Below, in pieces: positions 1,259-63,393 of a DNA stretch of 64,000 nucleotides. The notes beneath the pieces were generated by a model. That model was not told where the DNA came from. It saw nothing but the letters and a program-made list of their open reading frames with translations, and did not search any database. Where the stretch lies: NCBI GenBank assembly GCA_965222225.1, contig CBDCTK010000002.1, forward strand, positions 2,336,001-2,400,000, in the 5' to 3' direction. Within the stretch, counting starts at the first letter, position 1, and every line of letters starts with the position of its first letter. Both the position numbers and the translations under genes were made by a program. This DNA comes from Candidatus Poribacteria bacterium (GTDB lineage: Bacteria; Poribacteria; WGA-4E; JAJDTR01).

Positions 1259-2080
1259 ATGATACGACACGATGAAGAAAATAGAACCTTTGATTGTGAA
1301 CCCACGCTGACAGATACCCAAGTTCTGAAGTTCTGCAGAGAAGGTTTTCTCATGCTGGAAGGTATCGTGCCGGACGAGATAAATCGGCGCACTTTCGCTT
1401 ATCTCGACGAGCACCCATCCAAGGGACCGAGCACCATCATCCTGGCGGACTGGTTCCGTGATAACGTGCTCCTTGAACCGCAAGTAGCGGGTGCGGTGAG
1501 ATCCATACTCGGCAGAGATGTCGGGCTGCCGGTACTCATGAGCAACCACCGCGTGCAGTGCCCTGCACCGCTGGGGGATTGGCATCACGACGCGGATTCG
1601 CCTTTTGGCCCCGAGGTCAACTATCTCCAGGTATTCTACTATCCGCAGGATGCTCCCGTGGAGATGGGGCCAACCGAGGTGCTGCCGGGCTCGCATTTGC
1701 AGGAAACACCGCGCGACGCAGAACACCACGGAGGCGTGTTAACGACCGCACCTGCGGGCTCGGTCTTCATCACGATTTACTCACTCTTGCACCGTAGAAC
1801 CAAATCTACCGCAGCCGAGATGCGTAATCTGTTGAAATGGAGCTATTGGCGAACCGTTCCACCAAATCGGGATTGGATTAATGAGCCCGACTTTGACTTC
1901 CACACCGCGAACTACGGTGGACACGGCGTATGCAATTACATCGCCCACATGTTCTACTGGCTCTGCGGGAAAGCGAGCGAGTTCCGCACATTAGGCGGCC
2001 AGTCTTGGCCCTGCAGCTTTCCGCCGGGCAGCCAAATCGGCAAGTCCTACGGCTTCCCATCCGGACCGCCGAAATGGTAG
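1259..2080 (+). CDS. Phytanoyl-CoA dioxygenase (PhyH) family 2OG-Fe(II) oxygenase
   Basis: WHHD (HxD) motif, GPTEVLPGSH, distal His in LLHRR; start placed at ATG 1259 after GAGG. Confidence 0.85.
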   Translation: MIRHDEENRTFDCEPTLTDTQVLKFCREGFLMLEGIVPDEINRRTFAYLDEHPSKGPSTIILADWFRDNVLLEPQVAGAVRSILGRDVGLPVLMSNHRVQCPAPLGDWHHDADSPFGPEVNYLQVFYYPQDAPVEMGPTEVLPGSHLQETPRDAEHHGGVLTTAPAGSVFITIYSLLHRRTKSTAAEMRNLLKWSYWRTVPPNRDWINEPDFDFHTANYGGHGVCNYIAHMFYWLCGKASEFRTLGGQSWPCSFPPGSQIGKSYGFPSGPPKW

Positions 2081-2211
2081 ATCAAGCGACTGAACAAGGA
2101 GATGAAGGGAGTGAATAACGACCGATCAACTGAATGGACAGTGAAGGCGATAGAAAGTCTAGATAGAGTTCCCATAGAGATCCCTCAAGCGAGCAAACAA
2201 CTGAACGAATA
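2080..2211 (+). repeat. Cluster of covarying GA-hairpin elements plus ATAG-N3/4-TCCC tails
   Basis: Full copy 2124-2153 gatcaa ct ga at ggaca gt ga ag gcgatag; partial copy overlaps the stop codon of the upstream gene. Confidence 0.9.
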
Positions 2212-2529
2212 TGGAATTATTGGCGAACCGTTCCATCAAAACGCGAAACGCCAGTTTCCAGCAATAATCCAGTTGGAACTTACTCCGAGAGACTAGCAGG
2301 TTGGGTCTATGCAACAGTCACGCATGGACAACTCCCATCTAAAGCTGAAATTTTCTTGACTGTGGGGCGGGGGTATGATATACACTATGTTAATCATGAA
2401 GGTGGCGAATAGTCACCATTATGCGTGCAGTAGAATCGACCTCTTGAGAGCTGAAGTCCGGCAATATTGATGCTTGGATTTCACAGGACTTCCAAAACTT
2501 GAACCTAACACTTGAAAAGGAGTTCTACC

Positions 2530-3489
2530 ATGAAGAAGAAACTTGCGGCTATCACACTAAGTTGCGTGCTACTGTTCAGCGTCGCCGTGCTAGGTATAAA
2601 CGCACAGGCCCCGACAGAACCAAAGATTGTCTTCATGACCGATCGGGATGGGAACTTTGAAGTCTACATTATGAACAAGGACGGGAGCAATCCGCAAAAC
2701 CTGACCAACAATCCCGCTGACGACTTTGCCGCAAGGTGGTCTCCTGACGGCACAACTATAGCTTTTGTCAGCGGCAGAGATCACATGGGTTGGGAAGGGG
2801 ACGTTTACCTTATGGACCCCGATGGTAGCAATCAACGCAGTCTAGGAAACACTCCGGAGGGTGAACAGGATTTAGGGTGGTCTCCTGACGGCAAACAGAT
2901 TGTCATGGAGGTGAATATTGAACCGCGCCAAATCTTCGTTATGGACGCCGATGGTGAAAATCGCCTTCAACTAACGGACGAGACGATGGCAGACAACCAG
3001 CAGCCATCCTTCTGTCCTGACGGTCGTATCGCCTTCACCTCCGGTCGGGATGGGAACGGTGAAGTCTACCTTATGGACGCTGATGGGGGTAATCAGACCA
3101 GAATAACGAACCATGCCGCAACTGACCGGGAGCCAACCTGTTCTCCGGACAATACACAAATCGCTTTCTGGTCCGATCGGGCTGGGGATCTGGAAGTCTT
3201 CGTTACGGGTATCGATGGCGGCGATGCACGCAACATAACGAGAACTCCCGGGCATCACTGGCCTTCGCACTGGTCTGCTGACGGTTCGGAGATACTCTTC
3301 ACCTCCGAGCGTGATGGGAACGGCGAAATCTACATCATGAATTCCGATGGCAGCAATCAAGTCAACTTAACAAACCATGGCGGCTATGACGACCGTCCGG
3401 ACTTGTTTGAGCCTGGTGCCGGGACGGCTGTGTCTAGTCTTGGCCGGTTCAAAGCAACATGGGGCTGGATTAAGCAGAAGACCAAATAA
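2530..3489 (+). CDS. Secreted TolB-like/PD40 beta-propeller protein (paralog 1)
   Basis: Signal peptide, repeated WSPDG..IAF.S.RDG...IY.M motifs, C-terminal TWGWIK tail; AAGGAG RBS before ATG 2530. Confidence 0.9.
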   Translation: MKKKLAAITLSCVLLFSVAVLGINAQAPTEPKIVFMTDRDGNFEVYIMNKDGSNPQNLTNNPADDFAARWSPDGTTIAFVSGRDHMGWEGDVYLMDPDGSNQRSLGNTPEGEQDLGWSPDGKQIVMEVNIEPRQIFVMDADGENRLQLTDETMADNQQPSFCPDGRIAFTSGRDGNGEVYLMDADGGNQTRITNHAATDREPTCSPDNTQIAFWSDRAGDLEVFVTGIDGGDARNITRTPGHHWPSHWSADGSEILFTSERDGNGEIYIMNSDGSNQVNLTNHGGYDDRPDLFEPGAGTAVSSLGRFKATWGWIKQKTK

Positions 3490-3701
3490 GATTGGATACT
3501 CTTTAAGGTTACGTTTACCCTCGTGTTCTTGGTGGTGTAACCTCCGCAAACTCTACACAACTGGTAGCCCAACTTTCTAAATTGACAATTTCGCGAGCAA
3601 CCCGTCAAAACCAAGATAGAATCTTGGGCTACGAGTTGATTTGCCAAAGTCAAGCTAAATGAAGGCGGTAAATAGTTGGCAAAGTTTTAGGGAGGCTTAC
3701 G

Positions 3702-4685: not shown

Positions 4686-4861
4686 ACCGAATAAGATTTG
4701 AAAGTCTTTAAGGTCATATTGGTCCTTGTGTTCTTGACGGAGCGAATCCTCCGCTAGCTCTACACAACTCGACTTTGGCTAAAGTCACATCCTGGCAAAT
4801 GGCCAAAGTCGAGTATAAATGAGGGTGGTAAATAGTTGCCAAAGCTTTAGGGAGGCATACG

Positions 4862-5866: not shown

Positions 5867-6140
5867 TGTCGTTCTTGACGGATTCGGTCGCTTGCAGTAC
5901 GCTTAATTCTTTCCCTTGTGCCACTTAATTGTCCGTGGGTTGTCGCGTCTGCCTTCTTTCGATCAAGCCCTACTCAGGTTTCGCTACTCTTGAACGCGAT
6001 CTTAACAACCCTGATTGTCCCAACTGTTAGCACGCTGTCTCCCGCTGAGCCAGGAGCAGCAACTCCGCTCCTGAATCGCGAAAATCTCCTCGCGATTCAT
6101 ACCTTTGCAAGGCCTCCAACACGTGAACGGGAGTGTTGCG

Positions 6141-7422: not shown

Positions 7423-7452
7423 TTGACGGGACAAGTGGAAAACGGGTAAGAT
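7423..7452 (+). promoter_or_regulatory. Putative sigma70 promoter
   Basis: TTGACG-N18-TAAGAT upstream of the gene at 7546. Confidence 0.45.
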
Positions 7453-8652: not shown

Positions 8653-8698
8653 ATGGCTCACTATTTATCTCCGATTCCGTTCCTGTATCGAGAAATTT

Positions 8699-9019: not shown

Positions 9020-10612
9020 ATGTTGAAATCAGCAATATCGAGCCTATATTCCCTTCTTGGACGTTGGAGGGAGACAGCCACTTCAGTACAAAAGAAAAGA
9101 ATTCTCATCTTGTTGCTGATTGTACTGTATATCTCGCCGCTATGGATATTCAAATACTTCCAATCCCAGGATGGGGCAGCCCACGTCTATAATGCGTATG
9201 CGTTGAGAGTATTCCATGATGAAGGATCAACTCTTCTGAGGGAATATTTCAAGCTCAATCTCACACTTTTCCCCAACTGGCTCGCGCATGTCTGCATGTC
9301 ATTGCTGATGTATATTTTCCCTCCTTTAATAGCGGAAAAAATTCTTCTGAGCGCCATCATCGGTTTGTTTCCATTGTCATTTTTCTATTTTCTTGACTCG
9401 GCGCATAAGGGAAAGAGTCTATACGGTTTTCTGGGATTTCTGTTCGCGGACAGCTACCTGCTGCACATGGGGTTCTATAGTTTTGCCCTCTCTGTGCCAT
9501 TGTTTTTCTTTGCATTGGGCTATTTCATAAAGCACAAAGAGGATATGAGAGTCAATAGAATAGCAATCCTCTATCTCTTTTGCATACTGATTTTCTTCTG
9601 CCACATTCTCTCATACGCTCTTCTCATACTTTCCCTAACTCTCCTGTCCATTACATCTTTTTATCGCAGACCAAAACAGATCGTGCAGCTTCTGCTCTGC
9701 ATGTTGCCGTTGTACTTTATCATGGCAAATTACCTACTCTCAACCGAAGTTGGACAGGCAAGCGACCGAATGAACATAAGATGGGAGCGTCTCGGCGAAT
9801 GGAAAGCTTGGGATTATTTGCTTAGCGCCAAGATGTTGATGTTCTTTACCAGTGCTCACCTGATTCCAACGCGTCTCATGTCGGTTCTGGTGGGGCTGTT
9901 GTTCGTAGCTACTTTATATAAAAGAATCCGCCAGAGAAAGATTATGAGCCAAGACAACCAGTTTCTCCTGCTGTGCGGTGTTTTCACATTTTTCTATTTC
10001 ATTATGCCTTGGGGAATGGGGACTGGCTCCTTTATCACTGCCAGGGTTCCTCTCTTCATTATTCCGGTGTTGTTACCGTTTCTTAGCGAAGATTTCCACA
10101 AATACGTCAGAAACGGGATTGTTTCGGTCATAGTCATCCTTTCCATTGCCCATCTTGCCATAAGCTACAGCTACTATTATCCTCTGGACAAAGGTATGAA
10201 GGAGTACACATCCGGTGTTCATCTCATCGAGAAAAACAAGACTGTCTTAGGCCTCAGTTCCAATTTTCGTCCGGGCGTCAAAGAGGTGCCGCCGGTCACC
10301 CACCAGCCTTATTTCCATATCAAACCGTTTTGCACCGCGATAGACTATTATTGCTTGAGTAACAACGGTGTTAGTTTGACCAATTACGAAGCCAAGTTTG
10401 ATTACTTTCCGCTGAATTGGAGAACCAAACATTCAGGAACGATTGATTACATAGTGGCATGGAAACTGGACATGTCGAATGTGATGTGGGGTGAAAGCGA
10501 TCCTATCCACGGCCTGGATTACAAGGGGATAGCAGATAGTCTGGAAACGGATTACGAATTGATTCATTCCACAGAAAACCTGCAAGTCTATCGTCACCGA
10601 TCAAGCGACTGA
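9020..10612 (+). CDS. Polytopic membrane protein, possible GT-C-fold glycosyltransferase
   Basis: Many hydrophobic helices, SQDGAAH motif in the first loop, soluble C-terminal domain; visibly AT-rich; last codons and stop come from a hairpin element. Confidence 0.6.
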   Translation: MLKSAISSLYSLLGRWRETATSVQKKRILILLLIVLYISPLWIFKYFQSQDGAAHVYNAYALRVFHDEGSTLLREYFKLNLTLFPNWLAHVCMSLLMYIFPPLIAEKILLSAIIGLFPLSFFYFLDSAHKGKSLYGFLGFLFADSYLLHMGFYSFALSVPLFFFALGYFIKHKEDMRVNRIAILYLFCILIFFCHILSYALLILSLTLLSITSFYRRPKQIVQLLLCMLPLYFIMANYLLSTEVGQASDRMNIRWERLGEWKAWDYLLSAKMLMFFTSAHLIPTRLMSVLVGLLFVATLYKRIRQRKIMSQDNQFLLLCGVFTFFYFIMPWGMGTGSFITARVPLFIIPVLLPFLSEDFHKYVRNGIVSVIVILSIAHLAISYSYYYPLDKGMKEYTSGVHLIEKNKTVLGLSSNFRPGVKEVPPVTHQPYFHIKPFCTAIDYYCLSNNGVSLTNYEAKFDYFPLNWRTKHSGTIDYIVAWKLDMSNVMWGESDPIHGLDYKGIADSLETDYELIHSTENLQVYRHRSSD

Positions 10613-10876
10613 ACAAGGAGTGCGATAGTGAATTCCACGCGATAGCAAATCCCTCAATCGAGTGGACAGCGAGCGATCAACTGCACGGATAGTGAAGGAG
10701 CAACTGACCGATAGAGATCCCAACCCGAAAGAAATCGTGCACAGAAAAAAGACTTCCGAGATTTCATTCAGTCCGAAAACGTAAGAGATTCAGGTGAAAC
10801 CCAACGATCAACCGAACGATCAACTGAGCGGATAGCGAAGGCGATAGAGATCCCCTAGTGAGTGCGATAGGGATTC
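10599..10876 (+). repeat. Cluster of covarying GA-hairpin elements
   Basis: Full copies at 10599 and 10818 plus partial copies. Confidence 0.9.
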
Positions 10877-13094: not shown

Positions 13095-13274
13095 GTAGGG
13101 GCGAGGTTACCTCGCCCCCATAGGGATCAAGTTAGGGGATTTCGTCTAGCATTGGAGAGGTAGACGGTCACAAAACCCTTAGCTAAGTCCGCATTGGGCG
13201 GGAAGGAAATCTCTATCGCACCCCATGCGGTAGGTGCGATCAACTGAGTGGATAGCGAAGGCGATAGAGATCCC
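13095..13274 (+). repeat. REP GTAGGGGCGAGGTTACCTCGCCCC plus a GA-hairpin element at 13238
   Basis: Palindrome visible; gatcaa ct ga gt ggata gc ga ag gcgatag. Confidence 0.85.
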
Positions 13275-19122: not shown

Positions 19123-19181
19123 CGACCGATCAAGTGACCGGATAGGGAACGCGATAGAATTCCCATTGCGAGGACGATAGA
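19105..19181 (+). repeat. Cluster of covarying GA-hairpin elements
   Basis: Partial copy at 19105 supplies the stop; full copy at 19128 gatcaa gt ga cc ggata gg ga ac gcgatag. Confidence 0.9.
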
Positions 19182-20658: not shown

Positions 20659-20712
20659 GTAGGAGCGATCAAACGACCGAATAGTGAGTGCGATAGCGAT
20701 TACTTGCCCCGC
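20659..20712 (+). repeat. GA-hairpin element within a GTAG REP
   Basis: gtaggagc-gatcaa ac ga cc gaata gt ga gt gcgatag-...ttgccccgc. Confidence 0.8.
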
Positions 20713-26480: not shown

Positions 26481-26557
26481 GATCAAATGAGCGATTAGCG
26501 AATGCGATATAGATCTTAGGCGATAGAAAATGCCATTCGCTATCCGTTCGCTTGATC
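26481..26557. repeat. One forward and one reverse GA-hairpin element
   Basis: Forward copy at 26481; reverse partial copy ending at 26557. Confidence 0.8.
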
Positions 26558-29277: not shown

Positions 29278-29490
29278 GTAGGGTGGGCACTGCCCACCAT
29301 CGCCTTGTAAACGCCTTATTCCTATAGCCAAAATGTGACCATTTCTCGCACTCCAGCGGAAATCAAGCAAGTGAATAATGAACGATCGAGCGAACGAATA
29401 ACGAGTGATCAACTGACTGGATAAGGAAGGCGATAGCAATCCCATAGAGATCCCTCAAGCGAGGGAGTACCGAGTGCGATAGAGATTCTC
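29278..29490 (+). repeat. REP at 29278 plus a GA-hairpin cluster (full copy at 29407)
   Basis: Direct sequence match to the consensus. Confidence 0.85.
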
Positions 29491-30826: not shown

Positions 30827-30965
30827 GTAGGGTGCGATCCACCGACTGATTAAGGAGGGCGATAGAAAGTCTTGATAGAGATCCTACCAGCCTCTAAAAG
30901 CCTAGGGTGGATCAAACGAGTGGATAACGATCAAGCGAACGAATAGTGAGTGCGATAGAAATCTC
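30827..30965 (+). repeat. Cluster of covarying GA-hairpin elements
   Basis: Full copies at 30836 and 30929, partial at 30910. Confidence 0.9.
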
Positions 30966-31860: not shown

Positions 31861-31916
31861 GTAGGCGGGGATCAACCGAGCGGATAGCGAGGGCGATAGA
31901 GAGCCCCTTGCCCCGC
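31861..31916 (+). repeat. GA-hairpin element between the arms of a REP (gtaggcgggg...ttgccccgc)
   Basis: gatcaa cc ga gc ggata gc ga gg gcgatag at 31870. Confidence 0.85.
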
Positions 31917-35546: not shown

Positions 35547-35550
35547 TCTT

Positions 35551-35775
35551 GTAGGGTGCGATCAACCGAGCGATTAGTTGTAGGGTGGGCACTGCCCACC
35601 ATCTCCTTTTGAGCAGGTTGCTTGTTAGGTGAGATCTGCGATCGTCAAATCACCGATTCTCCCCCTTACCGCCCACCATTTCTCTTGTAGGGTGCGATCA
35701 ACCGACTGATTAAGGAGGGCGATAGAGATCCACTGCGATCAAAGGAATGAATAATGACTGCGATAGAAAATCCTA
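35551..35775 (+). repeat. REPs plus a GA-hairpin cluster
   Basis: Full copies at 35696 and 35737; REP at 35580. Confidence 0.9.
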
Positions 35776-35842
35776 CCAGCCTTTTATTGTAGGCTGGGTA
35801 TCGCCTTCCAATCGAACCTCGCAATATCAAAAACATAAATAT

Positions 35843-36769: not shown

Positions 36770-36783
36770 CAGCTGTAGAGTGA

Positions 36784-36973
36784 GATCAGGCGACTGAATA
36801 AGGATCAAACGAGTGGATAGCGAGTGCGATAGCTAATCCCGCGCGATAGCGTTCCCATAGAAATCCCATAGAAATTCCGTGAATCCCAACACCTGTAGGA
36901 GCGATCAACCGACCGATCAACTGAGTGGATAACGAAGGATCAAGCGAATGAATAATGAGTGCGATAGAGATCT
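36784..36973 (+). repeat. Cluster of covarying GA-hairpin elements with tandem tails
   Basis: Full copies at 36803 and 36938; atagcgttccc atagaaatccc atagaaattcc. Confidence 0.9.
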
Positions 36974-37427
36974 TCACAGGTTGCATAGCATCAGAAACCG
37001 CTGCCGACTTTTTTAATCGTCAACCAAAAAGCCCAGATGGTTACAATCTCTTCCCCTCTTCTTCAACGCTCGATCAACATCGTCTGTTATCCCGCTTAAA
37101 TGTACAAAGTCGAGCTCAGAATCCGTTTGGAAAATAGGTGGCAAAAGTATCTTTGATTGTTTGAGGAAGCACTTTGTCGCGTTTCTGTCGTCACCCGTCA
37201 TATTTCTGTCGCCCCGCTGGGGCTTAAGTACATGGGAATTAGGCGTTACTATACATCTTTCGCACCGCTGGTGCTTTCAGTAGTAGGGCGGATCGGAAAT
37301 CATCAAATCCCCGATTTCCCCTCTTATTGCCCACCATCTCTCAACAACGCATTGGTAGTAGAGGGCAACAATCGTTGCCCCTGCTGTTGTACGTACGAAT
37401 CCAACGCCCGTCGGACTGGATCAACGG

Positions 37428-38561
37428 TTACGCCTCGCCGAAGTAGCCGTATCCGGGCATCAGATGTTCCCTCGCAACCTCTTCGTTCAGTTCAACCCCT
37501 AATCCCGGCTGGTCGGGCACCACAAAAGCGTTATCCTGAATGAGCGGTTCCTTGGAAACCGCCAAATCCCATCGCCACGCCACCTGATCCGCGTGATACG
37601 GGAGTTCCATGACGATGAAATTCCGTACCGCGGCACAAACGTGCGCCGACGCTGTCATCCCGATCGGCGATGTGATATTGTGTGCGGCAAACGGCATATA
37701 ATACAAATCCGCCAGATCCGCAATCCTCTTTGCCTCCAGTATCCCTCCCGTTCCGGACACATCGACGTGAAGCATGTCGCAAGCCTGTGTCTGGATCAGA
37801 TCTCTGAAACCGTCTCGACGAAACAAAAACTCACCGGTACAGATTGGGATAGAAGTCGCGGCGCTTACCTTCGCCATCGCTTCGACATTATCGTTCGGCA
37901 CAGGGTCCTCCAAAAACATCAAATTGAACGGCTCCAAACATTCGGCAAGTTTCATAGCCGCGTGCACGCTGAATAGACTATGACAGTCGATGCTGATATC
38001 GATCTCATCGCCGACCGCCTCTCGCGCGGCGGCAACTAACGATGTCATTTTTCTCAACTCCGCCGAACTCAATTCCCGATTGACCGCATCCTGCTTGAGT
38101 TCGTTTGCGGAGTTATCAATGTCAAACTTGATCGCTTGGTAGCCGTCTTGGACACCTTCTCGCGCTCGCTGCGCCCAACCCTCCGGCGTGTTTCCCTCTC
38201 CATGCCCAACATCGGCATAGAGTCGAATACGCTCCCGATACCTCCCGCCCAACAACTGATAGACCGGCACGCCGAGGCTTTTTCCAAGCAAATCCCACAA
38301 CGCGGTTTCTATCCCGCCGATAGCCGATAAACCCCTCCCATATCGGTTGTTCACGGAACCAATCAGCCGGTTGTACAACGGCTCTATATTTCTCGGATCC
38401 GTTCCAACGAGCGTATTCCTGAATTGCAGGATAATTTCGGCGATTCCCGCCCCGGGATGCGCCTCTCCCAACCCCGTCAATCCCTCGTCGGTCTCAATCC
38501 GAACGTAGTTCCACTGTTTGTACCCTTTTAACGTCAAAGCCTTCACATCGGTAATTTTCAC
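37428..38561 (-). CDS. Mandelate racemase/muconate lactonizing enzyme (galactonate dehydratase-like)
   Basis: GTG start after GGAGGAGAGG; ETALWDL, KFD, DCH, LEDP, GE. Confidence 0.9.
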   Translation of the reverse strand: MKITDVKALTLKGYKQWNYVRIETDEGLTGLGEAHPGAGIAEIILQFRNTLVGTDPRNIEPLYNRLIGSVNNRYGRGLSAIGGIETALWDLLGKSLGVPVYQLLGGRYRERIRLYADVGHGEGNTPEGWAQRAREGVQDGYQAIKFDIDNSANELKQDAVNRELSSAELRKMTSLVAAAREAVGDEIDISIDCHSLFSVHAAMKLAECLEPFNLMFLEDPVPNDNVEAMAKVSAATSIPICTGEFLFRRDGFRDLIQTQACDMLHVDVSGTGGILEAKRIADLADLYYMPFAAHNITSPIGMTASAHVCAAVRNFIVMELPYHADQVAWRWDLAVSKEPLIQDNAFVVPDQPGLGVELNEEVAREHLMPGYGYFGEA

Positions 38562-38668
38562 GCCTCTCCTCCTACAATATACTCGGTCAAAAAGTTCTGT
38601 TAGTGTTGCGTATGTCAAGGATTCATGATAGCATTTCTCCCTGAGATCATGCAACATATGTAACGTGG

Positions 38669-38990
38669 GATCAAGCGACTGAATAGGGAGCGCGATAGTC
38701 TTCCTGTAGGGTGGACACTGCCCACCAGCCTTTGAAAACGCCAGCGGCGATCAAGCGACCAAATAGCGAGTAGGATTTTCTATCGCCCTCCCTATCCGGT
38801 CAGTTAATCGATAGAGATCCCAAGGCGATAGTCCTCCTGTAGGGTGCGATCAAAGGAATGAATAATGACTGCGATAGAGATCCCCTGCGCACCATCCTTT
38901 GAAAACGCCAGCGGCGATCAAGCGAGAGAATAGCGAGTAGGATTTCCTATCGCCCTCCCTATCCGGTCGGTTGATCGATAGAGATTCCCT
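38669..38990. repeat. Tandemly duplicated REP plus hairpin composite (forward and reverse copies)
   Basis: Two similar units; the REP is intact in the first and carries a hairpin insertion in the second. Confidence 0.9.
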
Positions 38991-39007
38991 CAACCAAGGA
39001 ACAAGCT

Positions 39008-40069
39008 ATGACACAAGAGAAACGAAAATGGCGAGTGGCAATTGCCGGTTGTCACCGCATGGTCACACGAACCCCCGGCAGCCATAACTTTGCCGCCGCC
39101 TTCTATTCGGTGCCAGAAGTCCAAGTCGTCGGCGTTTTCGATTTCGGTGCAGAGACCCGCGCCGAGTTTGTGACGTGCTGGCGAGATGCGTGGGGCGAGG
39201 TGACAACCTACGACGATTACGAACGCATGCTGTCCGAGATTCGCCCCGATCTACTATGCATCGCCACCCGCCAAACCATGCACGCCGACCAGATTGAACT
39301 CGCAGTCCAATCAGGCGTCCGCGGAATCCTTTGCGACAAACCCCTCGCCACCAGCCTCGAAGAACTCGATCGAATCAGCGCCGTCTGCCAAGATGTGCCG
39401 CTGCTATTCGCCCTCGATCGACGCTGGTACGCCCGCTACCGCTTTTTGAGGGGGCAGTTGGCTGACGGAATCATCGGTCCCGTTACCAGCATTACCGCCT
39501 ACGGGTTGTCGAACTTGATTAACCACGGCTGCCACTGGTACGATACACTACTCGCGTTAGCCGGTGACGTCGCGCCCGAATGGGTGAGCGGATTCGTTGA
39601 GGACATATCCGGCGAGCCGACGGAATCACGCAAACGGTTAGACCCCTCCGGCAGAGCCCAGATCGGATTATCGAACGGCGTTGTCCTTTACATTACCGCA
39701 GATGGTCGGCATCAAGGCCCCGGCCTGCCCATGAGTTTTGAGGTCGTTGGAGAGAACGGACGCCTTTTCCTGCTAAACGATGCGACGGAAAGTTTCGTCT
39801 GGCACGAGAACGAACCCTCGAATATCCAGCGATTGGAGCTACCCCAAGAAACCGAGCCTTGGCCCGCGGGGCGTGCCATGGTAGAAGACCTAATCAACGC
39901 CGTACACAGCGGCGGGAGGACTGCCTGCGATATAAGAGAGGCGTTCCCAGCCACAGAGATTGGCTTTGCCATTCACCTCTCGGCGAAGCAACAGGGCGCC
40001 CAAATCCAACTCCCCGCAGAAACCAGATCCCTCCAAATCAAGTCGTTTGAGTGGGGATCAACCGAATGA
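39008..40069 (+). CDS. Gfo/Idh/MocA family oxidoreductase
   Basis: VAIAGC, CDKPLA, NHGCHWYD; stop comes from a hairpin element. Confidence 0.9.
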   Translation: MTQEKRKWRVAIAGCHRMVTRTPGSHNFAAAFYSVPEVQVVGVFDFGAETRAEFVTCWRDAWGEVTTYDDYERMLSEIRPDLLCIATRQTMHADQIELAVQSGVRGILCDKPLATSLEELDRISAVCQDVPLLFALDRRWYARYRFLRGQLADGIIGPVTSITAYGLSNLINHGCHWYDTLLALAGDVAPEWVSGFVEDISGEPTESRKRLDPSGRAQIGLSNGVVLYITADGRHQGPGLPMSFEVVGENGRLFLLNDATESFVWHENEPSNIQRLELPQETEPWPAGRAMVEDLINAVHSGGRTACDIREAFPATEIGFAIHLSAKQQGAQIQLPAETRSLQIKSFEWGSTE

Positions 40070-40256
40070 ATAATGAGGGCGATAGAAATCCCCTCAACTG
40101 AGTGAATAGCGACTGCGATAGAAATCCTGCACCGCTTCCTGTAGGGTGCGCACTGCGATCAAGCGAATGAATAATGAGCGCGATAGAGATCTTACCAGCC
40201 TTTGAGAGTCCCAGCGGGGATCAAGCGAATGAAGAATGAGTGCGATAGAAATCCTG
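40056..40256 (+). repeat. Cluster of covarying GA-hairpin elements
   Basis: Full copies at 40056, 40157 and 40219. Confidence 0.9.
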
Positions 40257-40386
40257 CACCATTTCTTGTTAGGATGCGACCAACGATTATCAAATCCCCG
40301 ATTTCCCCTTTTATTGCCCACCATCTCTCGACTACACATTGACACCTGACCATTACGCGAGAATCCGCCCCCGATCGGAGAAAAAC

Positions 40387-41010
40387 ATGTTATACTACCT
40401 GCGCCGCTCCACGCCGTTCATCGTCCTATACACCCTTGGAGTTGCGCTGATCGGGCACACGACAGGCACCACCCCTGTGGTGAACATCCCCGACGCCAAT
40501 CTCCGGGTACTGCTTGAGATAGCGCTTGACAAGCCCGATGGCGCCGCGATCACAGCCGCCGACATGGCGACTTTGACGGACTTCTCAGCGGCTAGGGGGC
40601 GGATTCGCGATCTGACCGGTCTTGAGTTTGCTGTCAATCTCATAGACCTATCCCTTCGCGAAAACCAAATTTCCGACCTATTACCATTGGCGGGATTAAC
40701 GAATCTGAAAGCCCTTGACCTTGGCGACAACCCATTAGTTGACCTATCTCCCCTCGCGGGATTAACAAAACTTGAATTTCTGGATATCCCCAGATGCGGA
40801 ATATCCGACCTGTCGCCGTTGGGAGGGTTAATGAATCTGGAAAGACTAGGACTTGTGGACAACCGTGTATCTGACGTATCGCCCCTCGTCGAATTAACCG
40901 GTCTGAAAGAGCTGGATCTGCGATCGAACACCCTGAACCCGAAAACAGTCACTACAGACATCCCACGCCTTGAAGCCAATGGTGTGTATGTAGAGCATTC
41001 GAGTAGATGA
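40387..41010 (+). CDS. Secreted internalin-like leucine-rich repeat protein
   Basis: IPDANLR cap, repeated N.ISDLSPLAGLTNL..L.L units, N-terminal hydrophobic segment. Confidence 0.9.
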   Translation: MLYYLRRSTPFIVLYTLGVALIGHTTGTTPVVNIPDANLRVLLEIALDKPDGAAITAADMATLTDFSAARGRIRDLTGLEFAVNLIDLSLRENQISDLLPLAGLTNLKALDLGDNPLVDLSPLAGLTKLEFLDIPRCGISDLSPLGGLMNLERLGLVDNRVSDVSPLVELTGLKELDLRSNTLNPKTVTTDIPRLEANGVYVEHSSR

Positions 41011-44707: not shown

Positions 44708-44790
44708 GTAGGGTGCGATCAACCGAGTGAACAACGATCAAAGGAACGGATAGTGACTGCGATAGAAGATCCCGTGCGATATAGATCCTA
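44708..44790 (+). repeat. REP head plus GA-hairpin chain
   Basis: Partial copy at 44717, full copy at 44736. Confidence 0.9.
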
Positions 44791-51850: not shown

Positions 51851-52075
51851 CAAGCGAACGGATAGTGAGTGCGATAGTAAATCCCTCAAGCGAACGGATA
51901 GTGAGTGCGATAGAAAGTCCTGTGCGATAGTAAATCCCTCAAGCGACTGAACAAGGATCAAGCGAACGGATAAGGAGTGATCAACTGACTGGACAAGGAA
52001 GGCGATAGTAATTCCTGATAGCGAATCCCGTGCGATAGAAGATCCTGATAGAGATCCCTCAACTGACTGCATAAT
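51851..52075 (+). repeat. Long chain of GA-hairpin elements and tails
   Basis: Duplicated caagcgaacggatagtgagtgcgatag; full copy at 51979. Confidence 0.9.
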
Positions 52076-52783
52076 GACCGGCAAATTCAAGATATCTCAC
52101 GAAGATCATACCGAGCGCATCCGTCGGCGAGTCTACGATGGCTGGACAACCTCGCAAATCGTCGATTCACGCATAGAAAAATACCCGATGTGGAAACATA
52201 TTGACCGCAGCAAATTTATAGACGCATCATTACTTTCTAACCCGCGTAACTGTTTAGTGGCTAGTGATTAGTGACTAGCAAAAACCTTAAAGCCGTAAGA
52301 CGTGCAAGGAATTGCATTACTACGAACCTGCAAGCGGAGATTTCGTAGCGCAAAGATCTCTATGGGAGCTCTATCGCACTCACTGTTCGTTCGCTTGATT
52401 ACTCGCTATTCACTCGCTTGATCTGTCAGATTGTGCTTGTGATGCGCAAACTGACAGTTTGCGGTACGGGAGACTTATTCCACAACACTGTAGGACAGGA
52501 CATGAATCTCACTAGTCACTGACCACAAGCCACTGGCCACTAAACACTTACTAACCCGCTATCCAAGTGCTCCCCAAAAAAGTGGGGTGAAATATACGAG
52601 CGAACTTTAGCGAACTTTAACGAAGCGCGTCGCGCATGGCTTCAAGCCACGCCCGGCAAGGCTTCAAGCGCAATTTCAGAGCTTGTCGAAAAAGTTCGCT
52701 CTAATCTCGACAACGTCACTGTAAACGACACACGCGATCTGCTTGCCGTAGCGCGCTCCATCAACTCCATCGGTGGCTTTTGA
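52074..52783 (+). pseudogene. 131-aa hypothetical gene interrupted by a MITE
   Basis: Removing 52246-52551 and one TSD restores a continuous frame ...SNPLSKCSPKKWG...NSIGGF*. Confidence 0.75.
52246..52551. mobile_element. 306-bp MITE
   Basis: TIRs GTAACTGTTTAGTGGC / GTAAGTGTTTAGTGGC (rc) extended by heptamer repeats; TSD TAACCCGC at 52238-52245 and 52552-52559; reverse hairpin copies inside at 52354-52423. Confidence 0.85.
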
Positions 52784-56740: not shown

Positions 56741-56835
56741 TAGTGTGCGATCAAAGGAATGAATAATGACTGCGATAGAAAGTCTTGATAGAACTCCCAT
56801 AGTTAATCCCGTGCGATAGAGCTCCCATAGAGACC
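56741..56835 (+). repeat. GA-hairpin element with multiple tails
   Basis: Full copy at 56749, identical in sequence to those at 35737 and 38848. Confidence 0.9.
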
Positions 56836-57207: not shown

Positions 57208-57243
57208 ACGCGCATTAAGTTTGTCGAAGGTAAAACACAGCCC

Positions 57244-58626
57244 ATGCCGAATACCGACCTGCACGACTTGCCCGCCGCCTTGGGCGGAACCCCTACTTTC
57301 GAATCAACTTCCGACACCTCCTATCCGAAACTTGAACGGTGGCGCCAAATCTCGGAAGCCGAAGCGAAGATTGCCTATGAGATGACCCTGCGCAACGAAC
57401 TTTCGGGTGCATCACCCGTGGTGCAAGCGTTTGAGCAGATGTGGCGCGACCGGCACGATACCAAGTTTGCGATAACGCTCAATAACGGCACGGCGGCGAT
57501 ACACAGCGCCATGTTCGGACTCGGCGTGGGCCCCGGTGATGAGGTCATCTGCCCCACCTACACTTGGATATGTTCGATTACCCCCGCGCTGATGCTGATG
57601 GCGAAACCCGTCTTTTGCGAGATTGACCCGCGAACCCTGCTAATCGACGTGGAGGATGTGCGGCGGCGGATCACCGAGCGCACGAAAGCCATTGTCGCTG
57701 TCCATCTGTGGGGCAATGTCTGTGATATGGATGCGCTGATGGCGTTGAGCGATGAGACCGGTGTTCCCGTTATTGAGGATTGCTCGCACGCTCACGGCGC
57801 CAGCTACAAAGGGGTGCCGTGCGGCAGTATCGGACACGTCGCCGCCTGGAGTTTGCAGGGCAGCAAGCCGGTCAGCGCGGGCGAAGGCGGCGTGCTGGCG
57901 ACGGACGACGCCGAAATCTTTGAACGCGCCTGTTTGCTCGGACAGGTGAACCGCTCCGCCAAGATTGAGGGAGGCAATCCGCGGTACAAGCACCTTCCCC
58001 CGATGGGGCTTGGGGTCAAATACCGGGCGCACCCCGTGGCTATCGGCATCGCATCGGTGCAGATGGAGAAACTCGAGGCGTTGAACGCCAAGCGAAGCTC
58101 CTTCATTCGAGAGGTGTCGGACGGCTTGCGTACCATACCCGGAGTCAACCCGGTTGAAACGCATCCCGGCACACAGCCTGCGGGTTTCTTCGGATTCCCT
58201 ATCCACTACTCCCCGGAAGAGTTGTGCGGTCTGCCGGCGCCCCTGTTTGCCGATGCGCTCCGAAAGGAGGGCGTGCTCGCAAACAACAACCCGTATCCGC
58301 TCCTCGTCGGTGACGGCGTGCCGCTATTTTCGGGTAGCGCCCCGTCGAACGACAACCCGTATCCGCTTCTCCACACCCTGCCACTGTTTACGGAGGGGAT
58401 GGACATCTATACCGAAGGACGGGGCCCCCTCTGTACGCCCGAAATGGGGGGAGATTACGCAGGCTACGCCCAAGGCGACCTGCCCGTCAGTGAAAAAGCC
58501 TGTTCACGCCTCGTGTTCCTGCCTGTCCTGACAGATCCGATTCCCCATGCCGCAGGTCGCGTCCTCGCCGCAATCGACAAAATAGCCCGTCACGCCGAAA
58601 TGCTCGTCAAGAGTGATGCCGTTTGA
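57244..58626 (+). CDS. DegT/DnrJ/EryC1/StrS aminotransferase
   Basis: NGTAA, GPGDEVI, VHLWG, IEDCSHAHG, SLQGSK, GEGG. Confidence 0.93.
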   Translation: MPNTDLHDLPAALGGTPTFESTSDTSYPKLERWRQISEAEAKIAYEMTLRNELSGASPVVQAFEQMWRDRHDTKFAITLNNGTAAIHSAMFGLGVGPGDEVICPTYTWICSITPALMLMAKPVFCEIDPRTLLIDVEDVRRRITERTKAIVAVHLWGNVCDMDALMALSDETGVPVIEDCSHAHGASYKGVPCGSIGHVAAWSLQGSKPVSAGEGGVLATDDAEIFERACLLGQVNRSAKIEGGNPRYKHLPPMGLGVKYRAHPVAIGIASVQMEKLEALNAKRSSFIREVSDGLRTIPGVNPVETHPGTQPAGFFGFPIHYSPEELCGLPAPLFADALRKEGVLANNNPYPLLVGDGVPLFSGSAPSNDNPYPLLHTLPLFTEGMDIYTEGRGPLCTPEMGGDYAGYAQGDLPVSEKACSRLVFLPVLTDPIPHAAGRVLAAIDKIARHAEMLVKSDAV

Positions 58627-60298
58627 CATGCCGGTCGAATTCTCTTCCCGCACCCGGGCACAGAACATCCAAAACCTAAAGCGCGAGCCGTTGGACGTGC
58701 TGGTCATCGGCGGCGGCATCGTGGGCACCGGGCTAATTCGTGATCTCGCCCTAAACGGCGGGATCCGAGCCGGGTTGGTTGAGAAGGGCGACTTCGCCAA
58801 CGGCACCAGCAGCGCCACCTCCCAACTCATCCACGGCGGTTTTCGGTATCTCATCAAACGCGATTTCGCGCTCATTAAAGAGGCGCGGCGCGAACGCGAA
58901 ATCCTGCTGCGCATTGCGCCGAACCTCGTCAAACCGGCGCCGCTCGCCATCCTCAATTACAAGGGGGATCCCTATCCGCTCTCCGGAATGAGCATCGCGG
59001 CACAGTATTACAATCACCTCTCGAAAGCTGACAAGGCGGAGAAAGCTCGCACGATACGCGATCCGGCGCAGATACGGGATCTGGTCGGTCCCATTGAGAC
59101 ACAGTCGTTGAAAGGCTGCGTTGTGGTTTGGGATAGCAGGGTCGACGATGCGCGATTGACCCTACTGACGCTGAAGGATGCGTACCGGCACGGCGCTGTG
59201 GTAGCAAACTACGTCCGCTTCGTCGAATTCATCGCCCAGCCAAGTAAAGCCAACCGGGCGTACACAGTTCGTGTTGAAGATGTCCTCTCCGGCGAACAGT
59301 TTGAGATAGTTACACACAAGATTGTGTCGGCAGCCGGTCCTTGGACAGATCGGCTCTGGGAGAAGGACCCCGCCTACGATGGCGTGCCGCGATTGACAAC
59401 CCGAAAGGCTAAAGGAATTCACCTTATCTTGCCCCGGTTGAACCGGAGCGACTGCGGCATAGCGACGTTCACCCGCGCGGAAAAACGTCAGAACGAAAAA
59501 CCTCGCATCATTTTCACTCTTACCTTCAACGATTCGCTTTCTGCGATTGGCACCACCGAAACCGATCCCGAGGCGGATCCCGATTGTGTGCGCCCCTCTG
59601 CCGCCGAGGTGGATTACCTGCTTTCGGAAGTCGCGCGAATTTTCCCGACGGCAGCAGCCGTCAATCGGGTGAGCATCGTGTCCGCGTATGCGGGCGTGCG
59701 CCCCCTCATCGCCCCCAAGGGCGATGGCTTTGTCTCCCGCGAACACCTTATCACCGAGAGCAAAAGTGGAGTGCTCTACATCTACGGCGGCAAGTTGACC
59801 ACGCACCGAAAGATTGCCGAGGAGGCTGTCGATTGCATCGCGGAGGGACTGGGGCGTCCGCGTTCCTGCAAAACCGCAGCGCACCCACTGGGAGACAACG
59901 CCGAGCACGTGTTGGATGGAGACGCCAAACTGATTCCGCCTGCGTACAGAGAACGGATTATTGGACGCTACGGTGGAGACGCAGCCGTCATCGGAAAGTT
60001 AATCGCCGAAGATCGGACGCTGGCAGAGCCGATGTCGGAATCGTCCGCCTACTTGAAAGCGGAGGTGCTCTATGCCTTTTGGGGTGAAATGGCGATGACG
60101 CTCGACGACCTGCTCTGGCGGCGTTTTCGAATCGGCTTCAAACGAGGTCAAGGCATTGACCTGGCGCCGAAAATCGCGCGCTTCCTCGGTGAAAGAGGAC
60201 ACTGGAACGAAACTAGAATGGCATCCGAAGTAGAAGCCTACACGCAACGAATCGCCCAACTGAATGCGGAATTCAAGAACGATCAACCGAGTGAATAA
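58616..60298 (+). CDS. glpD: FAD-dependent glycerol-3-phosphate dehydrogenase/oxidase
   Basis: IGGGIVG, GTSS..SQLIHGGFRYL, DDARL, AGVRPL, GGKLTT; stop comes from a hairpin element. Confidence 0.88.
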   Translation: MPFDMPVEFSSRTRAQNIQNLKREPLDVLVIGGGIVGTGLIRDLALNGGIRAGLVEKGDFANGTSSATSQLIHGGFRYLIKRDFALIKEARREREILLRIAPNLVKPAPLAILNYKGDPYPLSGMSIAAQYYNHLSKADKAEKARTIRDPAQIRDLVGPIETQSLKGCVVVWDSRVDDARLTLLTLKDAYRHGAVVANYVRFVEFIAQPSKANRAYTVRVEDVLSGEQFEIVTHKIVSAAGPWTDRLWEKDPAYDGVPRLTTRKAKGIHLILPRLNRSDCGIATFTRAEKRQNEKPRIIFTLTFNDSLSAIGTTETDPEADPDCVRPSAAEVDYLLSEVARIFPTAAAVNRVSIVSAYAGVRPLIAPKGDGFVSREHLITESKSGVLYIYGGKLTTHRKIAEEAVDCIAEGLGRPRSCKTAAHPLGDNAEHVLDGDAKLIPPAYRERIIGRYGGDAAVIGKLIAEDRTLAEPMSESSAYLKAEVLYAFWGEMAMTLDDLLWRRFRIGFKRGQGIDLAPKIARFLGERGHWNETRMASEVEAYTQRIAQLNAEFKNDQPSE

Positions 60299-60335
60299 CG
60301 AGGGCGATAGCAAATCCCGTGCGATAGAGATCCTA
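60281..60335 (+). repeat. GA-hairpin element
   Basis: gatcaa cc ga gt gaata ac ga gg gcgatag. Confidence 0.9.
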
Positions 60336-60615
60336 CAGGTGTATAGCGCGTGACGACAAATACACGACAGCGCTTCTCCTCAAACGATCAAACATGATTT
60401 TTCCACCTATTATTCAAACAGGCTCTTAATTACCGCAAAGCGCTTGAGGTAATTTTTCCAAAGCAATCTACAAACCTTTCGCCCCGCTGGGCTTTTATTA
60501 CGTTGCTGTTTTCGCGGCTATACACCTGTCGCGCCTCTGGCGCTTTGGGGTGTAGGAGGCCGGTTACCCTATTTAGGAACCGCGTCTTCAAGAAAAAACC
60601 GGGGTTCTTCGCAAG

Positions 60616-61518: not shown

Positions 61519-61520
61519 CG

Positions 61521-61608
61521 GGATCAAGCGACCGAATAGGTAGGGAGCGATTAACTGAGTGGATAACGAAGGATCAAGCGAATGGCTAATGAGTGCGATA
61601 GAGATCCC
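61521..61608 (+). repeat. Chain of GA-hairpin elements
   Basis: Partial copies at 61522 and 61549, full copy at 61572. Confidence 0.9.
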
Positions 61609-61736
61609 ATCACGCATTACGAGGCATTGACCATTCAACTGATTAAGCCCTAATTCAATTACCTCATGCGCACCTGCCCCGGCAGTGGCCCCTGGAGGTT
61701 CGAATAATTGTGGAAGAGCGACGCATACTTTCCGAT

Positions 61737-62339
61737 ATGGCACAACGCACACTTTTCGACCTGACACAAGATGGCTTGGTCATTGGACGAAAACTTGAGC
61801 GCATCTATCCCGACTTCGACACGCACACCTTCGTTAAGGACGTTCGGACGGAGATGGAGGGGCAAACGATTTACAACGTGACGAAAGCCGTCGGGCGCAT
61901 ATTGCGCCATCATCTGCCCAAAGACTATTCCGATGCGCTGGCTATTCTGATGACGTACGTCGACACTGAAATCCCCGCTGAACCCAGCCCGTCACCCAGT
62001 GAAGAACTTCAGACCAGCTTGAGACCCATCTCCCACTTCGTCAGCCTGCAGAGCGAAGCCGATAAGCCACAAACGATTCTCACGCACTACGTAGTTTCCT
62101 ATAAGCGCCCCACGGGCCACGTCACGCGTAAACGCTACCGCGTCAGCCAACGAAAGTTAAAACCGAAACAGAAGGTCAGTTACGATAAATCTCTTTTCCC
62201 GTTGCCATCTCTCAAGCAGTACCACGACGGAAAAGCGTGTCTGGGCTGGCACCGCTTTGAACTTGAAGTGAATGGCGACGCGATCGGAAGTTTCGATTTT
62301 GAAACAATCGCGGAAACACATCGTAGAGAATCACATTGA
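61737..62339 (+). pseudogene. DNA alkylation repair (AlkC/AlkD-like) protein with an apparent internal deletion
   Basis: N-terminal YPDFD..F and LP.DY..AL.IL join directly to a C-terminal beta domain (Y.V.Y.R..G....K, G.H..EL.VNG); central helical repeats appear absent. Confidence 0.55.
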
Positions 62340-62415
62340 TTGCGTCTGCGATGTCTTAACTTACAAATCACGAGGTAGAAACAGGCTGGAATTGTAGAAG
62401 GAAGGAGCTACTACC

Positions 62416-63150
62416 ATGACAGATGAGGAAAAATTTACCGTCGATCTTCAGGGGTACCTGGTGATAAAGGACGTGTTGACCGACGATGAAGTGAATGAGA
62501 TGAACGCCATCATTGATAAAGGAAACCTTGAAGGACCGCCAAGCCTTTGGGGATCGCCGTTTAAGCGGCTTATCGACCACCCCAAAATCCTCCCCTATCT
62601 TATCGAGCTTTTGGGTCCCTATGTTCGTCTCGACCATGATTACGCCCTGTTTATGAACGAGGGAGACAGGCGCGGCGGATTGCACGGCGGCGAGGATGGC
62701 GGGCGTCCCGGCGGTCCCGAAGGCGACCATTGGTACAGGTACAGGGATGGCGTGATGCGAAACGGTCTATGTGTGATGACATACAACTTAACCGATGCGC
62801 CCGAAGGCGCGGGCGGGTTCGCCTGCATTCCCGGGAGTCACAAGAGCAATTTCCCGACCCATGTGCCGCAGGAGGTTCGACGGTTCGAGCGGCCGGCGCA
62901 CTATGTCGTCCAACCCGCGCTTGACGCGGGTGATGTCCTGTTTTTCACCGAAGCCGTCATTCACGGAACCATGCCGTGGCAGGCGGAACACCAGCGCCGT
63001 TCCGTACTCTACAAATACAGCCCCGGGCATTCGGCGTGGTCGGGAGGTTATTACGACATCGGCAAATACGGCGAGTTGACCGAGCAACAGAAACGGATGC
63101 TCCTGCCGCCATCAATCGGCAGCCGTCCCCGCGTCGTGGATGAGAGCTGA
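62416..63150 (+). CDS. Phytanoyl-CoA dioxygenase (PhyH) family protein
   Basis: LHGG, GGFACIPGSHK, AGDVLFFTEAVIHG; AAGGAG RBS. Confidence 0.88.
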   Translation: MTDEEKFTVDLQGYLVIKDVLTDDEVNEMNAIIDKGNLEGPPSLWGSPFKRLIDHPKILPYLIELLGPYVRLDHDYALFMNEGDRRGGLHGGEDGGRPGGPEGDHWYRYRDGVMRNGLCVMTYNLTDAPEGAGGFACIPGSHKSNFPTHVPQEVRRFERPAHYVVQPALDAGDVLFFTEAVIHGTMPWQAEHQRRSVLYKYSPGHSAWSGGYYDIGKYGELTEQQKRMLLPPSIGSRPRVVDES

Positions 63151-63153
63151 GTT

Positions 63154-63393
63154 GTAGGGTGCGATCAACCGAGTGAACAACGATCAAGCGACTGAATAAG
63201 GAGCGCGATAGAAATCCCGTGCGATAGAGTTCCCCTTGCCCCGCCGCCTTTGCGCGGAGACAAGGCTGCTTATTCCGCTCCACACGAGTTCCTTTACTCG
63301 ATCCACGTAATCAATGCACTTGAATTTTAGAGAAATGGTATAAATCTTGATAGAGGTCCTAGGGCGATAGAAAATCCCGTGTGATAGAGATTC
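63154..63393 (+). repeat. REP head plus GA-hairpin chain and tails
   Basis: Partial copy at 63163, full copy at 63182, tails at 63349-63393. Confidence 0.85.

Follow-up and report, generated by a model that had tools for sequence, protein, structure and literature searches.

A fold-dependent 35-37-nt repeat of Candidatus Poribacteria as a probable non-autonomous mobile DNA element

A short hairpin repeat is scattered through a 64-kb stretch of the genome of a Candidatus Poribacteria bacterium (assembly GCA_965222225.1, contig CBDCTK010000002.1, positions 2,336,001 to 2,400,000; hereafter the window), which lies on a 5.64-Mb contig of a two-contig genome. We propose that this repeat is probably a non-autonomous mobile DNA element of 35-37 nt, carried by sponge-symbiont bacteria, whose spread depends on its own fold. 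In the proposed mechanism, the unit would be excised or copied and then re-inserted as a folded single strand, an enzyme would read its G.A-zippered mini-hairpin by shape together with the fixed flanks, and only copies still able to fold would leave descendants. Such a folding filter, combined with stepwise transitions through G.T intermediates, would produce the near-perfect covariation seen among the copies.

Anatomy, covariation and distribution of the repeat

An earlier note on this DNA had described a 30-nt hairpin element at 26 sites of the plus strand. A consensus scan that allowed up to two mismatches returned 32 matches in the window, compared with a mean of 0.00 across 100 dinucleotide-preserving shuffles. 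All 26 sites match the consensus, 24 exactly and two (26481 and 30836) with one mismatch each, and so do the three reverse-strand copies listed in that note (38780, 38947 and 52371). Three extra copies, at 29453, 40092 and 51884, carry the variant head CCTCAA. The two irregularities that the note had flagged, a single y:z mismatch at 20667 and a non-pairing partial copy at 40092, were also borne out.

The unit consists of a head, (G)ATCAA; a 17-nt core, NN-GA-NN-GRWYA-NN-GA-NN, whose four variable dinucleotides are named x, y, z and w from 5' to 3'; the box GCGATAG; and a tail, A[AG]ATCC(C). Within the core, two 2-bp stems (x:w and y:z) surround invariant tandem G.A/A.G pairs, and an extra G...A closes the loop. 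Because the tail is conserved past GCGATAG, the unit is 35-37 nt long, more than the 30 nt first described.

Among the 32 aligned window copies, standard pairs fill 97.3% of 224 pair cells, against 75.2% with shuffled 3' partners, and both-sided changes occupy 60 cells, against 17.3 in the shuffles. None of 500 partner shuffles attained the observed value of either measure, and sliding the partners by 1-3 columns dropped pairing to 23-48%. The GA/GA and loop features are invariant in this alignment, as are the columns of the ATC/GAT base helix except in CCTCAA-headed copies, and covariation is uninformative there. A further outer helix between flank and tail was rejected: bases upstream of the head pair with those after the ATC of the tail no more often than shuffled partners do.

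The same pattern extends across the genome, where 649 exact copies represent 263 distinct sequences (a separate count gives 641). Both pairs are intact in 603 of the 649 copies for x:w and in 617 for y:z, so the covariation first noticed in the window holds at about 93-95% of stems genome-wide. G.T occupies 262 of 2596 pair cells and A.C only 23, showing that the written strand is the strand that must pair, as the earlier note had maintained. When head and tail were ignored, the bare paired core occurred at 947 places (703 with the head GATCAA, 689 with the box GCGATAG), compared with 59 in a reversed-genome control. Stem positions are biased, for example y2 being C or T and z1 being G or A, and the variants form series linked by single transitions via G.T intermediates (GC:GC, GC:GT, AC:GT; GG:CC, GG:CT, AG:CT). 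The data support a structure-constrained single-strand hairpin in which pairing, tandem G.A and framework alone are kept.

How the variants arise was addressed by comparing stems, frameworks and species. Of the four stem pairs, an average of 3.87, 3.77, 3.48, 3.11 and 2.73 remain intact at zero to four framework mismatches, where the four-mismatch matches may include chance matches. Since pairing falls together with the framework, resident copies decay whole, and the fold is filtered when copies spawn copies. The earlier note had suggested, as one option, an enzyme that writes the fixed bases de novo and derives the variable ones by self-templating on the folded-back strand. The high diversity of the copies, with most x:w by y:z combinations occupied, is the only point in favour of this idea, which is contradicted on several sides and has next to no chance of being right. 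GA faces GA, and the arms are not templated complements; G.T makes up about a tenth of pair cells; the decay just described is that of ordinary DNA; and identical 30-mers recur between species, with 106 of 170 copies sampled from other Poribacteria genomes (131 loci) sharing a 30-mer with the window's genome and 149 fully paired. The independence test proposed in the note found x:w and y:z combinations strongly non-independent (chi-square 575, 72 d.f.). Non-independent combinations and 30-mers common to species mark the variants as inherited lineages, not fresh synthesis, and the covariation is descent with compensatory change. Compensatory variants also occur in repetitive extragenic palindromic (REP) sequences and in the CRISPR (clustered regularly interspaced short palindromic repeats) repeat of this genome, and the statement that REPs conserve sequence rather than pairing was therefore too strong, yet such variants are much richer in the element.

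Across 176 Candidatus Poribacteria genomes, a high load of copies is confined to two genera: all ten genomes of the window's genus (365-1002 copies) and all four genomes of a second genus from another family (121-163 copies). No copies were found in 155 of the 176 genomes, and seven hold 1-16. A covariance model built from the 32 window copies was used to search 41 relatives, with at most 150 candidates scored per genome so that counts saturate, and found nothing more in the element-free genera among them. In a scan of species-representative genomes, 80 titled loci of at least 131 all belong, among the matches listed, to Candidatus Poribacteria metagenome-assembled genomes; other phyla are possible. 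Three genomes (G066, G146 and G010) have few copies, placed on a handful of small contigs with up to 11 copies (ten exact, one with one mismatch) in 6 kb. This density resembles that of the window's genus, and dense copies on few small contigs were probably mis-binned from co-occurring element-rich Poribacteria; a wider spread based on these matches was discounted. Contigs from three other DNA runs cover the same loci as our copies and break inside them, their joints being repeat artefacts. The presence of hundreds of copies in two separated genera suggests horizontal spread or repeated loss.

Insertion into other hairpin repeats

Many copies are nested in one another. In a peeling test, a complete inner copy was excised in silico and a complete outer copy was then sought across the cut. 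Cuts after the G of w-G^CGATAG restored 22 outer copies, 15 of them with all four stem pairs, and cuts in the outer loop restored 14, of which 12 had all four, compared with a chance of about 2% that both stems pair at a random join. At 83 places the next head begins straight after a core, and what is left of the outer tail follows the tail of the inner copy. Nested insertion thus leaves stacks of n heads followed by n tails, such as that at window positions 2080-2195. Insertions lie mostly between G and C (a G^C step), and no target duplication was seen in restored outer copies and REPs.

Other repeats are entered with the same precision. The GTAG-tagged REP, whose intact form is found repeatedly, holds a copy in 85 cases genome-wide. 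The copies lie at either of two constant positions, both directly behind a GCG, and no fewer than eight distinct cores were seen at each position. The end hairpins of an IS200-like Y1 transposase gene are intact at 13 loci of 13 other genomes and copy-bearing in the window's genome, which has 40 such hairpin-copy junctions. The copy beside the Y1 gene P0001 lies within that gene's own end hairpin, intact in relatives. One orthologous REP has no insertion in genome G002, while G001, G003 and G006 have a decayed 35-nt copy there. This provides a single comparison of filled and empty sites between genomes of the genus; the other orthologous spacers of six genomes of the genus (~85% coding identity) hold different copies or none and are too diverged for clean pairs.

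A rough sorting of the 649 copies by left flank assigned 152 to targets of their own family, 103 to GTAG REPs, 38 to the IS200-like hairpin, 7 to CRISPR repeats and 146 to other repeated 12-mers, with 203 unique or unclassified. Relative to the target, copies stand in the same orientation in 73 REPs and the opposite one in 5, and in the same orientation in all 40 IS200-like hairpins. Of 648 chromosomal copies, 79 fall within crude open reading frame (ORF) calls and the others lie between ORFs. Neighbouring pairs 350-3500 nt apart comprise 107 direct and 45 inverted pairs; inverted pairs also occur in the window (38669/38773 and 38848/38940) and at a CRISPR locus. Integration of the Cas1 type, considered for a unit as long as a spacer, was rejected, as no repeat-length duplication lies beside ordinary insertions.

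These results refine the suggestion of a cis element recognised by shape. Recognition of shape fits the data, but the decay of pairing along with the framework and the nesting of copies in each other and in other repeats indicate that the constraint acts on the mobile element when it is copied and not on each resident copy.

Strand, replication and the mobilising enzyme

Folding with RNA parameters gave exactly the proposed hairpin as the minimum free energy (MFE) structure for four of four written strands, at -2.7 to -6.5 kcal/mol, and their complements folded worse. Copy orientation correlates with local GC skew (Spearman -0.48, p 6e-4), compared with -0.04 for gene strand; '++' spacers hold 133 plus and 90 minus copies and '--' spacers hold 86 plus and 65 minus. 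For 515 of 747 copies, and for 326 of 503 clusters, skew is negative on the written strand, a bias shared by REPs (112 of 157 copies, 73 of 117 clusters). There is no sign of gene-linked RNA; metatranscriptome contigs cover parts of copies, and contigs of an RNA library do not demonstrate transcription. With no link to gene direction, a link to skew and reverse transcriptase mostly absent in element-rich genomes, single-stranded DNA (ssDNA) at replication is favoured over RNA, and we lean towards DNA as the moving strand.

An RNA intermediate was considered on the same evidence. A folded RNA copy with G.U and tandem G.A pairs, reverse-transcribed into nicks after G, would account for G.T (G.U) being tolerated on one strand only and for the exact fold being obtained from the RNA energy model and not from the DNA model. 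Reverse transcriptase domains (RVT_1), however, were matched in only three of nine other genomes of the window's genus and two of four of the second genus, were only marginal in the window's genome and occur in element-free genera as well, and orientation is unlinked to transcription, making this route very unlikely.

Selection at each site for a host function, as an RNA 3'-end stabiliser, a protein-binding RNA or a nucleoid or topology DNA site, is also quite improbable. Sites for nucleoid or topology proteins have been proposed for REPs, many window copies lie directly behind ORF ends, and the exact RNA fold, the metatranscriptome contigs that include parts of copies and the invariant GA/GA and loop features would all suit such a role. 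A functional hairpin would not be expected to show what we find at the resident sites: orientation unrelated to flanking genes (rho -0.04), pairing that decays along with the framework, copies that interrupt each other, REPs and CRISPR repeats, and orthologous spacers of the genus that hold other copies or none; moreover, the RNA-library contigs are no demonstration of transcription.

Five Y1 (PF01797) loci are present in the window's genome, and 21 were found in five other genomes. Inverted copies flank two of the five local loci and one locus in G015; around the intact Y1 gene, the flanking copies lie inside that gene's own, different hairpins. The profiled Y1 families are found in genera free of the element and lack members in some element-rich genomes; in the co-occurrence check proposed in the earlier note, neither the three Y1 families profiled nor reverse transcriptase co-distributes with the element. 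Between neighbouring copies (152 pairs 350-3500 nt apart, viewed without a Pfam scan) no recurrent transposase-like gene stood out, and the recurrent proteins there form host paralogue families. BLAST clustering of 300-nt flanks for a longer autonomous element gave nothing usable, its single-linkage clusters being dominated by neighbouring copies. A single-strand substrate read by structure, insertion without duplicated target bases and a replication bias like that of REPs point to an HUH/Y1 nuclease of the RAYT (REP-associated tyrosine transposase)/IS200 kind as the leading candidate class of mover acting in trans, a tentative assignment that could well be wrong, with no cognate gene among the families profiled.

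Several observations weigh against a fold-dependent mobile element moved by such an enzyme. DNA nearest-neighbour parameters predicted the hairpin as the MFE structure in none of four tested strands; these parameters give no credit to sheared G.A, and the DNA fold therefore rests on known motif stability and not on computation, sheared G.A motifs being described as strong stabilisers of DNA mini-hairpins (PMC13037366). In most copies it is the C-rich strand that folds, which runs counter to the rule for IS200/IS605 elements, whose active strand is reported to prefer the lagging-strand template (PMC6006769). Over 41 genomes, three Y1 families (IS200-like, YCYENPVR-type RAYT and the family of the fourth locus) do not track the element, three further Y1 groups lying outside the profile, and the copies beside Y1 genes are weak evidence for a cognate enzyme, their position being accounted for by insertion into hairpins that belong to these genes. 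No strong target word beyond G^C was found in the 649 copies, unlike the fixed word of IS200/IS605, and the bases before the head are diverse (GAGC 53, GTGC 50, CGGG 39, GTGG 37). At the right junction the boundary varies by 1-2 nt, and the target C that adjoins the insert on its 3' side is often T. Many copies sit in composites, for example 45 identical copies inside one REP variant, and may have been spread by the host REP and hence be non-independent. Contigs from public runs, which break inside copies, yielded no clean strain-level pair of filled and empty sites.

Some of these points would suit spread without a dedicated enzyme, in which hairpin repeats exchange sequence by gene conversion or by template switching during replication. 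A polymerase stalled in one hairpin would jump to another copy, guided by a microhomology of 1-3 nt (left, S-G; right, C/Y), and then back. Such jumps would explain why the targets are nearly always other hairpins, why donor flank and target have junction bases in common (G/C then G on the left, C/T on the right), why the right junction wavers, why orientation tracks replication and why no cognate enzyme was found among the Y1 families and reverse transcriptases profiled. They would also be expected to leave a spread of lengths, whereas hundreds of events have an identical left boundary and the unit keeps to 35-37 nt. In addition, pairing of the written strand that tolerates G.T but not A.C demands a selective step that reads the fold. 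We therefore consider template switching improbable and retain the fold-dependent mobile element as the preferred explanation.

Known systems and companion repeats

By description, and not by sequence, the element works most like the small dispersed repeats (SDRs) of Nostocaceae. Elhai et al. (2008, Genome Res 18:1484) reportedly defined SDR1-8, with units of 21-27 nt, and to our knowledge the movement of Nostoc SDRs has gone unexplained since 2008. SDRs are described as dispersed repeats of tens of nucleotides that are thought to be mobile (PMC5861425; PMC4390886; PMC3116915; PMC2884548) and, in the cited account, as reported from Nostocaceae only (PMC5861425). SDR5 is described as inserted three bases into the palindrome HIP1, directly behind its GCG (PMC4390886). 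The element shares the very small size and the precise insertion into another short repeat, and its two REP sites also follow GCG. It differs in its length of 35-37 nt, in its occurrence in Candidatus Poribacteria and in targeting REPs, IS ends, CRISPR repeats and itself. HIP1 (GCGATCGC) is rare in the window's genome, at 120 sites in 5.7 Mb, and the GATC- and GCGAT-rich look of the repeats is thus no cyanobacterial sign.

A REP family is expected to have one cognate RAYT gene that is flanked by REPs (a REPtron) and co-distributed with them, and inverted doublets able to form a long hairpin are frequent in REPINs and BIMEs; among neighbouring copies of the element, direct pairs are the more numerous. 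Like REPs and REPINs, the element forms short, mostly extragenic hairpins in hundreds of copies with occasional inverted pairs, its single-strand fold matters, and it has the GC-skew orientation bias and compensatory stem variants of the local REPs. REPs are reported to bear GT[AG]G (or CGTC) as a conserved four-base tag on the 5' side of the hairpin's foot (PMC6006769; PMC3733652), and REP, BIME and REPIN elements to be associated with RAYT (TnpA-REP) Y1 transposases (PMC3116915; PMC6006769; PMC3733652). The element, in contrast, lacks a 5' GT[AG]G tag (GTGG or GTAG precedes 53 of 649 copies, the head being GATCAA) and a cognate RAYT among the three Y1 families profiled, has a stem of just 2+2 Watson-Crick pairs around obligatory G.A, and inserts into REPs like a parasite.

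IS200/IS605 elements are described as transposing by single-strand 'peel and paste' through structure-recognised hairpins (PMC6006769). Common to these and to our element are the absence of terminal inverted repeats and of target duplication, a hairpin read as structure, strand-specific insertion relative to the target and an orientation tied to replication. The element has one clear hairpin instead of one per end and no fixed 4-5-nt target word, and its mostly C-rich folding strand runs against the lagging-template rule. Nor does it look like a derivative of the resident IS200-like gene, which has different end hairpins (13 loci, 13 genomes) and is itself also found in element-free genera.

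A structural parallel is with DNA mini-hairpins of the GCGNNAGC / GCGNAGC type, which are described as unusually stable (PMC13037366). The loop Y-G-RWY-A-R would correspond to a closing pair plus a sheared G.A over a 2-3-nt loop, and the GCGATAG box (C-G-AT-A-G) may follow the same design (compare PMC13037366). The mini-hairpin is a structural motif, however, and not a genetic element. Unlike CRISPR repeats, the copies are dispersed and irregularly nested, and the true CRISPR repeat of the genome differs in sequence and is itself interrupted by copies. Rfam gave no matches at gathering score over the window and none at E up to 1 over 35500-40400, a region with 12 copies, and literature searches on Poribacteria REP/MITE (miniature inverted-repeat transposable element) repeats and GCGATAG hairpins found no published description, in line with the view that the element belongs to no described family.

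Several companion repeats were observed in passing. GTAG-tagged REP families are several (window 35560-35600, 38706-38730 and genome-wide); one has the compensatory variants GGTGCGC...GCGCACC and GGTGGGC...GCCCACC, and further families start GTAGGAGCGATCTCC, GTAGTAGGCATAC and GTAGGGACAACC, of which the second and third adjoin RAYT-type Y1 genes at C2:3088937 (with an internal TAG) and C2:3727502. In all hairpin repeat families tested (the element and two REP families), the folding or tag strand lies on the negative-skew strand about two thirds of the time, contrary to the lagging-strand-template rule of IS200/IS605. The IS200-like Y1 gene (165 aa, C2:3080258-3080753) is bordered on both sides by inverted hairpins, CCCCAG[AC]GGGGC then GACAGGTG; a Y1 gene with inverted hairpins (loci L037-L049) is kept in five genera of the order and is nearer a REPtron than a classical direct-ended IS200. 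A MITE-like repeat of ~150 nt with the hairpin CCACAATCT-GTT-AGATTGTGG occurs at loci L026 (G002), L029 (G009) and L030 (G006), in the spacer that corresponds by orthology to window 35545-35836; an element copy forms its end or lies within it, and one G002 spacer holds the repeat in duplicate. Outside the window, a small CRISPR array (C2:2705500-2707700) has eight intact 37-nt repeats in two blocks split by ~1.4 kb; the split region contains four left and three right repeat halves fused to copies, and the insert blocks are themselves duplicated. Its repeats show the compensatory stem variants CCGC...GCGG and CCCC...GGGG.

The copies of the window are collected in the table below. Stop codons inside three copies (10610-10612, 40067-40069 and 60296-60298) end three long mechanically called ORFs, of 530, 353 and 561 aa, whose original ends appear to have been replaced by the insertions.

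Table. Element copies and associated features in the window.
Position	Strand	Feature	Basis
2080..2123	+	two 5' partial units ahead of copy 2124, read as outer copies broken by later insertions	flank reading and genome-wide nesting logic
2080-2195	+	stack of three heads, then three tails at 2147-2195	
2124..2160	+	element copy (head, 17-nt hairpin, GCGATAG, tail)	0 mismatches
10599..10635	+	element copy; TGA inside copy ends mechanical ORF 9020..10612	consensus match
10818..10854	+	element copy; RNA-parameter MFE is the proposed hairpin	consensus match
13238..13274	+	element copy	consensus match
19128..19164	+	element copy, 5' partial unit ahead; RNA-parameter fold tested	consensus match
20667..20703	+	element copy, one y:z mismatch	consensus match
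26481..26517	+	element copy, T as last frame base	1 mismatch
29407..29443	+	element copy; contigs of other runs start or stop within it	consensus match
29453..29489	+	copy with variant head CCTCAA	2 mismatches
30836..30872	+	element copy within GTAG-tagged REP	1 mismatch
30929..30965	+	element copy	consensus match; other-run contigs compared
31870..31906	+	element copy	consensus match
35687..35781	+	single GTAG-tagged REP hairpin with two insertions (35696, 35737), one per arm after GCG	comparison with intact REP
35696..35732	+	element copy at REP site 1	consensus match
35737..35773	+	element copy at REP site 2; commonest variant, 45 identical genome copies	consensus match
36803..36839	+	element copy	consensus match
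36938..36974	+	element copy, inserted after G 3' of complete hairpin of outer copy	consensus match
38669..38705	+	element copy; inverted pair with 38773-38809	consensus match
38773..38809	-	element copy, head GATTAA	1 mismatch
38848..38884	+	element copy at REP site 1	consensus match
38940..38976	-	element copy	consensus match
40056..40092	+	element copy; TGA inside copy ends mechanical ORF 39008..40069	consensus match
40092..40128	+	variant-head copy (CCTCAA), x:w unpaired	consensus match
40157..40193	+	element copy at REP site 2	consensus match
40219..40255	+	element copy 3' of IS200-like end hairpin	consensus match
44736..44772	+	element copy nested in outer copy within REP; orthologous spacer of G005 only ~18 nt	consensus match
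51884..51920	+	variant-head copy	consensus match
51979..52015	+	element copy closing a stack of partial units	consensus match
52364..52400	-	element copy, head AATCAA	consensus match
56749..56785	+	element copy within REP	consensus match
60281..60317	+	element copy; loop TAA ends mechanical ORF 58613..60298	consensus match
61572..61608	+	element copy nested 3' of hairpin of outer copy	consensus match
63182..63218	+	element copy nested in outer copy within REP	consensus match

A bolder and unlikely extension is that the repeat is a new kind of minimal transposon, a sheared-G.A ssDNA mini-hairpin moved by a shape-reading enzyme family not recognised as a transposase and pasted at G^C steps in hairpins. 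If true, it would live as a hyperparasite on REPs, IS ends and CRISPR repeats that could disable CRISPR arrays and rival mobile DNA, and horizontal transfer would have carried it between two Poribacteria genera with sponge hosts in common.

Whatever moves it, the repeat family is real, abundant and well defined; we read it as near-minimal mobile DNA, and at about 36 bases it would be among the smallest mobile elements known. Candidatus Poribacteria would be only the second bacterial lineage, after Nostocaceae, in which near-minimal mobile DNA is shown. The family is tractable, with hundreds of copies per genome in several complete genomes, sharply defined ends and covariation as a structural read-out, and since it is absent from neighbouring genera its enzyme should be findable by phyletic profiling. 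In these symbionts, the family shows that such tiny elements are able to interrupt CRISPR repeats as well as the ends of other mobile DNA, provide genes with stop codons and fragment short-read assemblies.

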